Assembly (NCBI GenBank): GCA_951406725.2
Contig: OX597831.1
Location: forward strand, 33,604,001-33,668,000
DNA length: 64,000 bases
Source of the DNA: Octopus vulgaris
Lineage: Eukaryota
Reading direction: 5' to 3'
Positions 2,535 to 61,902 of the stretch are shown piece after piece. Under the pieces are notes generated by a model. It worked only from the letters and a program-made list of their open reading frames with translations, was not told where the DNA came from and ran no database searches. The translations under genes and the position numbers were made by a program. Position 1 is the first letter of the stretch. Each line of letters opens with the position of its first letter.

Positions 2535-3758
2535 CTTTTTTTTTCTTCTTTCAAATTTGCTTCCATTTCTTGCCGAGTGTCTTCCCGACTCCTAGGGCAA
2601 TGAAACTCATAGTATACATTGGTAGGCCATTAAACCAAACTCAATAGTTCGTTCATTTTTTTTTTTTTAAGTTAAATTAAAATACATGAGCAGCAACAGT
2701 TCTCACATCGACAATGCTCTTCTCAATACGTGTGATGTACCAGTTAAGACAATCTTTTGCACTTCTTGCAGGGATGGTAAGCCAGGGATCATTCTCATAT
2801 AATTTTCGGTTCCCTTCTTGATCATTCCTAGTGCTCCTACGATCACTGGTATTGTGACCGCCTTGAGATGCCACATTTTCTCAATTTCAATGAGTAGGTC
2901 TTTATATTTTCTGAGCTTGTCAAACTCTTTCGCTGAGATATTATGATCACAGGGGATGCTCATGTCGATCAATAAGCAAACTTTATTGTTTTGGTCTTTC
3001 ACAACAATATCTGGTTTATTGGCCTTGATGGTTCGGTCTGTATGTACTGGAAAGTCTCACAGAATGGTTACATTTTCTCCTTCAGTTACAGCCTCAGGGT
3101 GGTGATTATACCACTTGTCGGCAGTTTTGATATTGTAATGCCGACTTATTAGCCAGTGTAGATATTGGCCAACTCTGTCATGTCTTAATTTATACTCCAC
3201 TGGTGCTAAGACTTTACATCCAGAGATTAGGTGGTCCACTGTTTCAATCATGTCGTTGCAGAATCGGCATTTTGGGTCTGCTCCATTTTTCATCACATTG
3301 GCCTGGTAGTTCCGGGTTAATAGGCTTTGATCTTGAGCAGCCAGGATGAAACCTTCGCTCTCTGCTTTTAGCCCTGAGCTCCGTAGCCACTGATGGGTTT
3401 GCTTCTGGTCAACATCAGCTTGTTTGCTGCGGGTCACATATTTGCCGTGCAGAGGTTTCTCCTCCCACCTATCAGCCAATTGCTCGTGCGCTTTTTTCGT
3501 TGCCATCATTTTCACCTTCATTGCAACAATAGTTGCCGTACTTCCCTCGGGTTGTTCAGTTTGGGTATCCTGCACGAGATCAATAGCAAATTTTTTGCTT
3601 TCCTTTATGATAGAATGAAGCTTCTTTCGTCTCTCGTGATTTTCCACGAGCTTTAGCATCCAGTCATTCGATATTTCGAGATATTTGGCCAGTCCAATTG
3701 TGGTTGTTTTGTAAGCTAGTTCAAATTGGATCAGGCCTCGACCTCCTTGGGCTCTGGG
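2535..3758 (-). mobile_element. R4/Dong-clade non-LTR retrotransposon, 5'-truncated (CCHC zinc knuckle plus restriction-like endonuclease)
   Basis: PRAQGGRGL...CRFCNDMIETVDHLISGC...RHDRV...KPDIVVKD...LLIDMSIP...KLRKY. One in-frame TGA at 3057-3059 (IL*DFP, probably W) splits ORFs 3057..3971 and 2703..3002. Flanked by (TTA)n. Confidence 0.9.
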
Positions 3759-3841
<83 letters not shown>

Positions 3842-3855
3842 CTTCATCATCATCA

Positions 3856-3929
<74 letters not shown>

Positions 3930-3941
3930 ATCATCATTATT
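3759..3941. repeat. (ATT)n/(ATC)n microsatellite
   Basis: Direct reading; source of the poly-N/I/Y ORFs. Confidence 0.98.
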
Positions 3942-3944
3942 AAA

Positions 3945-4382
3945 GCAGTGAGCTGGCAGAAACGTTAGCACGCTGGGCGAAATGCTTAGCGGTATTCCGT
4001 CTGTCTTTATGTTTTGAGTTCAAATTTTGCTGAGGTCGACTTTGCCTTTCATCCTTTCGCGATCGATAAATTAAGTACCAATGAAACACTCGGGTCGATG
4101 TGATCGATTAGTCCCCTCCCCCCAAATTTCAAGCCTTGTGCCTTTAGTACAAAGGATCTTCATTATTATTGGCGAGCTGGCAGAATCGTTAACACGCCGA
4201 GCAAGCTGCTTAGCGGCATTTCGTTCGTTTTCACTTTCTGAGTTCAAATTCCAGCGAGGTCGACTTTTGCCTTTCATCCTTTCGGGGCGGATAAAATAAG
4301 TACCAGTTATGTACTGGGGTCGATGTAATCGACACACCTACTCTCGCGATATTGCTGGCCTTGTGCCAAAAGTTGAAGCCAT
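3945..4382 (+). mobile_element. Two tandem SINE A copies with different 3' tails
   Basis: Heads at about 3945 and 4171. Tails CCTTGTGCCTTTAGTACAAAGG and GCTGGCCTTGTGCCAAAAGTTGAA. Confidence 0.85.
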
Positions 4383-44588: not shown

Positions 44589-45890
44589 TTCGGTTGTTCG
44601 GAAAGTTCGTGCCGATTTTTAAAGGAAAGAAAAAGGTCAATAAATACTTGCCATTACATTTTTAATCAACCAAATATGAGCCATTTTGTTGTACATTGCG
44701 TCTCCATCTTTCCTTTAACTTGAAAATAACCTCTTCCCAGAATTGAGGCGGTTTAATGGCAAAGAATTCATCAAGGTATCTTTTTACGTCATCCAAGGAA
44801 TTGAAGTTTTTACCATTAAGAATATTCTGCAGAGACCTGAATAAGTGGAAATCCGAAGGAGCAATATCTGGTGAATATGGAGGGTGGGGTAAAACATCCC
44901 AGCGGAGCTGCAGCAATTTTCGTTTGGTTCCCAAAGAAACGTGCGGTCTTGCATTATCATGTTGGAAAACAACACCCTTCCTGTTGGCCAATTTTTGACG
45001 TTTCTCTTGAATTGCTGCTTTTAACTCGTCCAGTTGTGTACAGTATTTCTCAATTAATTGTCTGGTTACTTGGGAGAAGCTCATAGTACAGAATCCATTT
45101 CCAGTCCCACCAGACACAAGCAAGACTTTTTAAGGGTGAAGACTCGCTTTTGGGGTGGCTAAGGGTGGCTAAGGGTGGCTAAGGGTGGCTCATGTCGCCT
45201 ACTCCAGGATCGCTTTCTCTGAACATTTCCGTAGATAATCCATTTCTCATCACCTGTCACAATTTGCTTTAAAAAATGCGCGTTTTCATTCCGTTTATAA
45301 AGCGAATCACAGATGAAAATGTAATCCAAAATATTCTTCTCACTCAACTCATGTGGTACCTAAACATCGTAACGATTTGTGTACCCAAGCTTTGCCAGGT
45401 GCTCATGAACAACGGATTTTTGATAGGTTGAGGCTTTCTGCCAAGTATCGGGTGGTGCAATGTGGGTTATTCTCAATTAATGACTTGATTTGGTCATCAT
45501 CTGTTGTGGATGGTTTGCCTGATCGCTCTTTATCAATAAGGTTACAATCTCCAGCTCAGAACCTTGCGAACCACTTCCGTACAGTTCTTTCGGATAAAGA
45601 AGCATCACCGTAAAGTGTTTATATTTCTTTGGTTGCTTGTGAGGCATTTTTCCCTTTACGGAAAAAGAAAAGCATCAAGTGCCGAAAATTAACTTTCTTA
45701 TCTTCTTTTTTAAAGGGTTACAAAATTAACACAGGTTATAGGAACAAAAACCTTCTTCCACGAAAAGATAGCTTAAACTGTGCTCTAAATGGAGGTGTAG
45801 TCAAATCCTATTTTATGAACTCAACCATGTTCTAAAATAAGTCGAAAGGTAAGCTATTATAAATCGGCACGAACTTTCCGGACAACCCAA
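44589..45890 (-). mobile_element. Mariner transposon (DD34D, mellifera-like), defective
   Basis: 30-bp TIRs TT(C/G)GGTTGT(T/C)CGGAAAGTTCGTGCCGATTT with TA flanks. Motifs IVTGDEKW, HDNARPH, HPPYSPDIAPSD. Stops and frameshifts present. Confidence 0.95.
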
Positions 45891-46008: not shown

Positions 46009-46903
<895 letters not shown>

Positions 46904-47307
46904 TTATGGTATTATTATTCTACGAAAAAAAACAACATATTAACTGAGGAATCCATCTATGGATTTACAAAGCCAATTGGTGATGGGCTTCAACTTCAGA
47001 TCTTGTCTTAGGATTATCTGGAATTCTTTACTAATCTGAAAACGTTTTGTTATTCTGGTGTATTTCCAGTAACAGAGAGCTTGAGAAATATTATGCCCAG
47101 ATTGATAATCTCTTCTTAATAACTCTCTCTATCTCTCTCTCACACGCACACACACATAATACACACACACACATATTTACATATGTATGTGTGTGTATGT
47201 ATATGCATACTCATTCTCACGCATAGATATGTATCTATATGCAGCTAGCATGATTGTACATTCTGTATGCTGTGGTGTGTATTCATTGTGCATATGACTG
47301 CAGACAT

Positions 47308-47366
<59 letters not shown>

Positions 47367-47504
47367 CGGAGATGTACTCGCATAGCAAGTAATTTGATCT
47401 GAGATCGTGTGCTGAAGCGAAAACAATTGCAGCGTGGAAGGTGTTTATAAGCCATTTAAGAAACATACAAAAGCCGTTCGATTCACTTCAACATTTAAGT
47501 TTAA

Positions 47505-47554
47505 TTTGTCAAAATATTTTCGTCGCTAAAATCCGCGACCTGTTCACTGACAAA
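47505..47554 (-). ncRNA. Minimal type I hammerhead ribozyme candidate, G3-C8 variant (left arm)
   Basis: Exact reverse complement of 47571-47620. Confidence 0.65.
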
Positions 47555-47570
47555 GAGATGCAGCACGGAC

Positions 47571-47620
47571 TTTGTCAGTGAACAGGTCGCGGATTTTAGC
47601 GACGAAAATATTTTGACAAA
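47571..47620 (+). ncRNA. Minimal type I hammerhead ribozyme candidate, G3-C8 variant (right arm)
   Basis: TTTGTCA|GTGAACA|G|GTCGC-GGATTTTA-GCGAC|GAAA|ATAT|T|T|TGACAAA. 7-bp stem I, 5-bp stem II, palindromic AATATT stem III. Confidence 0.65.
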
Positions 47621-48063
47621 TTAAACTTAAATGTTGAAGTGAATCGAACGGCTTTTGTGTGTTTCTTAAATGGCTTATAAACATCTTCCACGCTGCAATT
47701 GTATATATATATATATGTGCAATGAATACGGCAGCATTGTCCATTGATGGCGTTGTTAGTTTTACATCCACGCTTCGCACACATCTCCACCTCTTCTCAA
47801 GGACAACTACGCCATTACCTTTCTTCATTACTCGTTATTAACAAGTATGGCTGTACAACTCTCCATAACTCCTTGCTGTCATTCATTGTTTACAATTTTC
47901 AACCGGTGCCTATTAATTTGAATGCTCGGAAACGTCTTAGCAATTCCCTTACTCGACTTCTTTCTTTCCACCTTGTTTCTGCATACCCATGAAAACATAC
48001 ACAAGCATACTTATGTTATACACACACACATACATACATATATACATACATACATACATTCAC

Positions 48064-60581: not shown

Positions 60582-61902
60582 CGATGGTGAGTCAAAAAGT
60601 AATGCCAGTTTTTTTTTAGGACAGGTATAATTACCTACACAGGAACATGTATCATACATCAAAATGAAGCTGGTCCTCTGTGGATCATATCCCTACTTCT
60701 CAATATAGCTTCTCAGTAGCAATGTTCTACCTTCGAATGAGAGCATGTATCCCTGCCACGTAAAATTTTGTTGACTGTTTTTTGAGCAACATCTTCACTA
60801 CAGTTTTCACTTCCTCGTCACTGAAATGTTTGCCTCTCAAAAGATCTTTCATGGGACCGAAGAGATGATAGTCTAAAGGCGCTAAATCTGGTGAGTATGG
60901 AAGATGCGGTAAAGTTGTCCACCCGAATGAGGCGATTGTCTCCCTTGTCATGATGCTTGTGTGTGGTCGAACATTGTCATGCAGAAAGAGGACATTGTCG
61001 AATGGCAAGTTGGGTCTTACTCGTCGGATTCTTGCTCTGAGCCTCGTCAGGGTCTCAATGTAGGCCCCAGAGTTTATTGTTTTTCCTTTCGGCAAGAAAT
61101 CGACCAGAATGACACCTTGAGCCTCCCAAAAGACGATCGCCATGATTTTTCCAGCTGACTTTGCGTCTTGAACTTTTTCGATGTTGATGACGTAGACTGG
61201 CGCCATTCCACTGACTGCTTCTTTGATTCTGGTTCATAATGATGAACCCATGTTTCATCACCTGTTACGAACCTTCGAAAAGTTTTGTCTCTTTGACTTT
61301 GTTCGAGAAGTTCAGTGCAGGCATTGACTCTGTCAGTCTTGCGTTCGGTAGTCAATTCTCTCAGTACCCAACGGGCACACAATTTTGAAAAGCCAAGTGA
61401 TTCGACAATGTTCTAAGCACTTCCATGGCTCACTTCAAGGTTTTCTGCTAACCCATCAAGACTTATGCGCCTGTCTTCTCTGATCAGAGCATCTGCTTTT
61501 GTTTTATTGGTAGGATTCACAGAAGCGGAAGGACGGCTAGAACGGGGTTGATCGGCTACACTCACAATTCCCACCTTTTCATCTTCCAGACGACGGACCC
61601 ACCTGCATACATTGCTATAATCTAAAGTATTGTCCTCAAAGACATTTTGTAATCGTCGGTGAATGTTCACAGGGGTTTCCCCCTCAGCAACAAGAAATTC
61701 AATCACTGCTCTTTGTTTTTGAAGTAACTATAAGGGGGAGCCATTTTGAATTTTCTTTACCAATCTAAAAATCTGAAATGTAAGAAACAAAATATTTCAG
61801 AACGTAAATATGATCATTTATAACTGGGAAAATTTTCAGTTATTTTTATCAAAAACTACACATGCAATAAAGAAAATGGCATTATTTTTTGACTCACCCT
61901 CG
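60582..61902 (-). mobile_element. Mariner transposon (DD34D, irritans-like), defective
   Basis: TIRs CGA(T/G)GGTGAGTCAAAAA(G/A)TAATGCCA with TA flanks. Motifs QRAVIEFL, ARWVLREL, VTGDETW, HDNVRPH, PYSPDLAPLD. Confidence 0.95.

Follow-up and report, generated by a model that had tools for sequence, protein, structure and literature searches.

We found that an inverted repeat in a 64,000-nucleotide stretch of the Octopus vulgaris genome (the window; contig OX597831.1, positions 33,604,001 to 33,668,000) consists of two head-to-head pLTR copies of an abundant octopus Penelope-like retrotransposon (PLE). Each copy carries a minimal type I hammerhead fold with a flipped tertiary pair, G3-C8, in its core, and by comparison with related elements the swap is a natural covariation. 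The reading that we hold to be likely as a whole is that of a terminal-repeat foldback with a family-wide G3-C8 hammerhead, which would cleave slowly after U17 with the assistance of a dimer or a protein and whose arms would stem from two reverse transcription events on uncleaved RNA.

Hammerhead folds in an inverted pLTR insertion

The fold of the right arm lies on the forward strand at 47571..47620, with a predicted cut at 47613/47614. Stem I (47571-47577/47614-47620) leads into the core GTGAACA (47578-47584, with G3 at 47578 and C8 at 47583), which is followed by an extra G (47585), stem II (47586-47590/47599-47603), the GAA of GAAA (47604-47606), a palindromic stem III, AATATT (47607-47612), and U17 (47613). 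The left arm carries the same minimal type I fold on the reverse strand (47505..47554), with the G3-C8 core at 47547-47541 and U17 at 47512. In motif-relative numbering G3 is 0 and the predicted cut falls just before +36. An earlier note on this DNA had described the stems, core, extra G, GAAA, AATATT and U17, and all of them were found where it had placed them on both strands. Its claim that the core leaves the consensus only at positions 3 and 8 also held, with U4, G5, A6, A9, G12, A13, A14, the A15.1-U16.1 pair and H17 all present. The Watson-Crick pair between positions 3 and 8 is present as G3-C8 and the literal C3/G8 consensus is absent, and stems I and II, the extra nucleotide before G10.1 and the palindromic stem III are those of the minimal type I hammerheads of PLEs. 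A 7-codon upstream ORF (window 47558-47581) opens at the 5′ boundary and ends on the TGA of the hammerhead core.

Stems I and II both form in the computed fold of an arm, which has an energy of −15.4 kcal/mol (z −3.7). A descriptor left free at positions 3 and 8 returned only two palindromic matches in the 64 kb window, namely the two arms, with a score of 15, and in 40 dinucleotide shuffles of the window the same descriptor gave 12 matches with a top score of 12. Rfam at the gathering threshold matched nothing in the window, in agreement with the proposal that standard searches overlook this motif.

The whole insertion occupies 47363-47702 between (TA)n runs, which flank it on the left (47311..47362, start approximate) and on the right (47703..47717) and within which no target-site duplication is distinguishable. 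Two inverted arms had been recognized before, and this part of the description stands; the extent had been given as 47505-47620 and falls short of the actual insertion, which includes about 60 extra nucleotides on the left arm. The foldback arms proper (47423-47555 and 47570-47702) are 133 nt long and 98% complementary. The left arm (47363..47555, reverse strand) is a pLTR copy that is 5′-truncated at stem I and has the long 3′ end with a tail; it is 97% identical over 193 nt by blastn to the pLTR-ORF junction of locus L103. The PLE tail of about 60 nt (47363..47422, reverse strand) is found on the left arm only and codes for N-terminal residues of the ORF. The right arm (47556..47702, forward strand), 97% identical to the same junction over 147 nt by blastn, runs from the common 5′ start of the family to the short, tail-less 3′ end. 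It includes the start of the RT-endonuclease ORF (47670..47702, forward strand), with an ATG at 47670 and an in-frame stop just upstream, until the 3′ end of the arm cuts the frame off; the equivalent ATG in L103 opens an RT-bearing frame. At the arm junction (47555..47559, forward strand) a G precedes AGAT, which is the common 5′ end of the copies. We infer that this junction marks a transcription start with a cap-derived G, and the G at this locus could belong to the left arm instead. The foldback is an ordinary, known type of PLE insertion, since inverted pLTR insertions with a tail on one end are described for PLEs in the available text of PMC8557442 and PMC3846280.

The window also holds a local duplication of about 100 nt (46520-46623 and 46763-46862, 93% alike) within 46321-46904, which has internal inverted similarity and lies between microsatellites. 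Frames that we take to be fragments of mariner-type transposases lie at window 44662-45129 and 60727-61233, and a frame at 3057-4019 presumably covers the C-terminal region of an ORF from a non-LTR retrotransposon, all three on the reverse strand.

The parent element and its 3-8 pair

The repeat unit belongs to a large family in the octopus genome (2.8 Gb). Several of the 30 best loci extend upstream through a UTR of about 0.9 kb into the end of a GIY-YIG domain, and in L103 the unit runs downstream into an ORF with its ATG at +92 from G3. Because the ORF continues on both sides, the unit is the pLTR of an endonuclease-bearing PLE. The longest open frame among 150 scored matches (1025 aa, L095) contains the motifs DKS, YVDD, the linker CQSNCAVC and VY..YIGET; Pfam gave GIY-YIG with an E value of 1.6e-5, above the cut-off, and no match to an RT family in this frame. 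None of the loci examined holds an intact full-length copy. The element nevertheless has the organization of an EN+ PLE, with a single ORF in which RT precedes a C-terminal GIY-YIG endonuclease, a pLTR that overlaps the beginning of the ORF, partial tandems in direct or inverted order and an optional tail. The linker that separates RT from EN (CQSNCAVC) is of the CX2-5CxxC form, which in the available part of PMC8557442 defines Neptune/Nematis-type EN+ PLEs. The motif had been taken for a PLE-terminal minimal hammerhead, and it does sit in the pLTR, 92 nt ahead of the ORF start. A non-LTR retrozyme, going by the partial descriptions of these elements, was considered and rejected, as the window copies are head-to-head and come from the pLTR of an ORF-bearing element and are not head-to-tail hammerhead units. 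Elsewhere in the genome, L118 (G000:C28:4994870-4997926) contains several head-to-tail pLTR copies with short (TA)n between them and resembles a retrozyme-like array derived from the family.

The pair is nearly fixed in the family, which answers the check on G3 and C8 that had been called for. A 22-mer spanning the G3-C8 core has 5,534 exact copies genome-wide, as compared to 335 copies with another base at position 8 (T at position 3 is not covered) and 166 with another base at position 3, two sets that overlap slightly, so that the pair is kept in about 92% of the 22-mer copies. Matches to a looser pattern numbered 17,974, as opposed to 5,075 for the control pattern, and this excess indicates that the family probably exceeds 10,000 copies. 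For a sample of arms we used 100 matches listed of the 8,694 to a downstream 24-mer, all from contig C1, together with one extra arm; 111 rows came down to 101 arms once duplicates from overlapping loci had been removed. Of the 75 sampled arms that cover the sites, 70 have G3 and 69 have C8. Thirteen common subfamily variants in the sample fall in loop II (4), outside the motif (8) and in stem I (1), which leaves the core and stems II and III without any. The stem I variant turns U-A into U-G and preserves pairing as a wobble, and the conservation of the stems is borderline by Fisher's test (p 0.008 with the wobble counted as conserved, 0.059 otherwise).

A canonical C3-G8 subfamily was absent among the 100 listed of the 166 non-G3 matches, and C3-G8 copies were likewise absent among the 100 listed of the 335 position 8 variants. 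The latter comprise 42 G, 40 T and 18 A, such that the G3-G8 mismatch is as frequent as G3-U8, which takes a C-to-T transition. Examples of the G3-G8 core are L035, L038, L107 and L117, and at some loci it occurs in both copies. This frequency and the presence in both copies suggest that mismatch cores may have been copied, and G3-G8 may represent a minor lineage that has propagated or a step on the way to the swapped pair.

It had been proposed that positions 3 and 8 covary among relatives, and they do: the pair is C3-G8 in a sister octopus family and C3-G8 or U3-A8 in metagenome relatives. The sister family in the same genome (L268 at G000:C19:14369500-14379499, L269 and L213-L232) has a protein 58% identical and a homologous pLTR motif with C3-G8 and C9, a compensatory change of a stem II pair and a stem III that is imperfect. 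It keeps intact frames of 1311-1312 aa with an Asn/Ser-rich stretch in the ORF, forms tandem arrays with a period of about 4.6 kb and is very young, with copies 98-100% identical, for which reason we regard it as a good candidate for an active element. The hammerhead motif was found in 11 of 35 metagenome relatives, as C3-G8 in seven (L233, L235, L236, L237, L250, L252 and L267) and as U3-A8 in four (L234, L239, L248 and L249), with the motifs of L233 and L234 found only by a looser descriptor; G3-C8 occurs in none of the 35. Ten of these motifs lie on the sense strand, 97-457 nt beyond the ORF match, and that of L267 lies on the opposite strand. Two cores vary further: L233:4972 combines U15.1-A16.1 with C3-G8, and L234:2496 combines U3-A8 with C at position 9. 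The motif was absent from the other 24 relatives, most of which end early, although the flank exceeds 800 nt in L244, L247, L251 and L254. Descriptor matches within ORFs (L248 position 842 and L254 position 365) were taken as chance.

A FastTree phylogeny of 18 proteins (692 columns, midpoint root) placed the two octopus families as sisters (1.0), joined by L235 (0.94) and then, with weaker support, by L234 and L233; it holds the octopus families and metagenome relatives, and the likeness to Neptune/Nematis is known from the linker. Most simply, G3-C8 would be a derived double change on the branch of this family.

Copy ends and the template RNA

Head-to-head pairs account for 34 of the 101 sampled arms (17 pairs). 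Counted from G3, the 3′ ends fall into two groups, near +125 (50 arms) and near +185 (51 arms), and every one of the 17 pairs joins one tailed and one untailed arm (p 1.5e-5), as does the pair in the window. At the 5′ side, 67 of the 101 arms reach −7 or farther upstream, 18 end within the motif ahead of the cut, 14 end past it and 2 end within 3 nt of it, with none at the predicted cut itself. Differences between subfamilies distort the alignment and create the cluster of 5′ ends at −7, whose true positions lie farther upstream; in 38 arms the end lies between −26 and −17. Copies linked to the ORF have T or C before AGATG (−22), whereas among 100 listed of the 688 copies with a purine there, the base is G in 87 and A in 13, and the base preceding this extra G varies among copies. 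We infer that the extra G marks the 5′ end of an RNA, with the G templated by the cap or added terminally. Reverse transcriptases can add a G in either way. The distribution of 5′ ends and the extra untemplated G suggest that the inserted copies were likely made from uncleaved sense RNA, and cleavage may still occur with its products left uncopied.

Just upstream of the pLTR start in L103 (1140-1166) lies a branch-point-like CTAAC with a pyrimidine tract and an AG end. An intron acceptor as the origin of the 5′ boundary was rejected, because splicing predicts shared upstream bases and only one G is shared. We favour a start site plus one added G over the intron reading of this boundary. Read-through RNA from tandem copies may use the acceptor, as Drosophila Penelope does. 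Contigs from four presumed RNA sets, aligned to L103:790-1800, showed neither a splice joint nor accumulated ends, and contigs are unable to reveal either.

In five of the 17 pairs the arms disagree at subfamily-diagnostic sites off the junction; among these five, L163 and L166 carry different loop II types on their two arms. Such discordant pairs suggest two RNA templates. Alternatively, a foldback might form when a single cDNA snaps back and primes itself, or it might come from an antisense template, a view that concerns the insertion only and not the ribozyme. Snap-back is put forward in the available text of PMC3846280; small palindromes do occur at the sampled junctions, and snap-back also predicts the agreement at subfamily sites off the junction that is seen in the other 12 pairs, 5 of which agree at every aligned base. 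The discordant pairs speak against it, however, as does the location of the untemplated G, which the sense strand carries at its 5′ end, and we rate snap-back or an antisense template as unlikely, though with appreciable weight. The earlier note had further held that the two motifs matter as a pair, which we could not uphold: they lie on opposite strands in what is the usual inverted-pLTR insertion. It is true that a palindromic stem III implies dimers (PMC4209133, in the available part), and both arms face outward from the putative start site, such that two separate transcripts might meet in trans. Yet a tandem dimer is impossible from a single transcript since the motifs lie on opposite strands; such a transcript would hold one sense and one antisense motif and fold into a hairpin of −241 kcal/mol, and a read-through transcript of the locus would have the motif inside a 133-bp hairpin, inactive. 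Furthermore, 67 of the 101 sampled arms are without a partner arm carrying the anchor, many sampled pairs have one arm that ends within or past the motif, and the left arm at the locus has no start site. Joint action of the two motifs as a dimeric ribozyme at this locus is therefore very improbable.

Under the favoured reading, with two reverse transcription events on uncleaved RNA, the RNA would begin 22 nt ahead of the core, presumably capped, and the element protein would nick both strands of a (TA)n target. Reverse transcription would then begin at two internal sites just within the ORF, at about +125 and about +185, one per strand, and both cDNAs would extend to or near the 5′ end of the RNA and be joined there. 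Use of the first pLTR of the RNA as template would yield the short copies and use of a downstream pLTR the ORF-bearing copies.

Cleavage and relation to known hammerheads

A putative ribozyme is probably the right reading of the fold, and we think it rather probable that the G3-C8 fold cleaves slowly with assistance. That the catalytic geometry is conserved is supported chiefly by the five nearest lineages, which have three Watson-Crick identities at the 3-8 pair. In the parts of PMC11167929 that treat it, an engineered C3G/G8C change partly restores a PLE hammerhead that needs its protein. Four observations argue against a fast ribozyme: in the monomer G3 wobble-pairs with U17 across the cut site (probability 0.67), an analogue of the C3-G17 trap described in the available text of PMC3884650; the all-A-U helix III duplex of a dimer is worth only −0.2 kcal/mol; G3-G8 copies are in excess; and minimal PLE hammerheads cleave poorly even as dimers, according to the accessible portion of PMC4209133. 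Against the favoured reading as a whole stand the sister family, which is very young despite its C9 and imperfect stem III, and the four relatives that showed no motif despite a 3′ flank longer than 800 nt.

These same observations bear on the alternative that the motif is a hammerhead by descent with no useful cleavage, kept because it gives structure to the 5′ UTR or an internal promoter or binds a protein. This would fit with the lack of sampled copies that start at the predicted cut (0/101), the G3-U17 wobble and weak helix III, the excess of G3-G8 copies and the deviant core of the presumably active sister family, and in the anole PAc element mutating the hammerhead left in vitro insertion unaffected and the ends of RNA-seq reads did not coincide with the cut (PMC11167929, as far as its available text goes). 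However, the pair in question is a tertiary one known from the active conformation, and its three Watson-Crick identities, along with the palindrome, GAAA and UH that are kept across proteins 27-58% identical, are hard to explain without catalytic geometry; we judge a purely structural role to be rather unlikely. A likeness to hammerheads arising by chance would accord with the lack of an Rfam match, and short motifs do arise randomly, but the score of the arms exceeds the best in the 40 shuffles, and relatives have canonical hammerheads in the equivalent position, a positional homology that refutes chance, which leaves it a negligible probability.

The largest survey of PLE hammerhead variants is reportedly that of Lunse 2016. 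In the literature listings that our searches covered we found neither a natural G3-C8 hammerhead nor an octopus Penelope hammerhead. PMC3884650 contains a single passage on G3-C8, and the core could already be listed by Lunse 2016, by Przybilski and Hammann 2007 or by Seehafer 2011. Already published are minimal PLE hammerheads, their palindromes and opposite-strand pairs, natural U3-A8 and a partial rescue by engineered G3-C8. The metazoan PLE hammerheads of PMC4209133, in the part of that work at hand, resemble the octopus motif in being type I and located in pLTRs, in the extra nucleotide before stem II, in G10.1-C11.1, in a palindromic 15.2-16.2 region and in occurring mostly as solo copies but also in opposite-strand pairs 100-700 bp apart. 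The octopus motif differs from them in its G3-C8 core and longer stem I (7 bp). From the same portion, the Cercyon elements of Schistosoma are a natural U3-A8 covariant, and none of the 56 representatives in Fig. S3 of Cervera and De la Pena 2014 starts with G3. Natural covariation from C3-G8 to U3-A8 and a U15.1-A16.1 variant, the latter also seen in the octopus relative L233, are reported in the available part of Perreault 2011 (PMC3088659), in which we found no natural G3-C8.

The octopus element is also close to PAc, a Poseidon element of Anolis, as presented in the available sections of Frangieh 2024 (PMC11167929): both have a hammerhead at the pLTR-ORF junction and AT-rich targets, and on the favoured reading of the octopus copies both start reverse transcription at two internal sites that set the tail, nick and extend the two strands, and take uncleaved RNA as template. 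They differ in that G3-C8 is a laboratory rescue in PAc and the natural state of the family in octopus, the tail is about 60 nt in octopus and 30-40 in PAc, the ORF starts after the motif in octopus and inside it in PAc, and the octopus linker is of the Neptune/Nematis type, unlike that of PAc. With the Neptune/Nematis-type EN+ PLEs, as covered in the available parts of Craig 2021 (PMC8557442) and Arkhipova 2013 (PMC3846280), the family shares the RT, the CX2-5CxxC linker, the C-terminal GIY-YIG, inverted 5′-truncated copies with a tail on one end, microsatellite targets and a pLTR that takes in the first ORF codons; it stands apart in its very high share of short, pLTR-only copies. A repeat annotation of O. 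vulgaris lists 31 recently active Penelope-like families, and its available text (PMC13282606) makes no mention of a ribozyme.

The motif is, to our knowledge, a natural example of a core swap previously seen only as an engineered rescue, and searches based on CUGANGA and Rfam miss whole high-copy families. As C3-G8, U3-A8 and G3-C8 occur in one scaffold, whether PLE hammerheads cut, and why, is directly testable. The statistics of copy ends bear on how PLEs produce inverted insertions. Somewhat short of even confidence, we tentatively suggest that a family of more than 6,000 copies runs on the flipped G3-C8 hammerhead and that its thousands of foldbacks, each with one tailed and one untailed arm and some with arms of different subfamilies, result from an integration that uses two RNAs and two primers, the RNA being capped, uncleaved and of sense orientation. 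If this is true, the genomic copies would be evidence that PLEs integrate through a dimeric complex and would count against snap-back or antisense models, and the catalytic tertiary pair 3-8 would have three identities over five neighbouring lineages.
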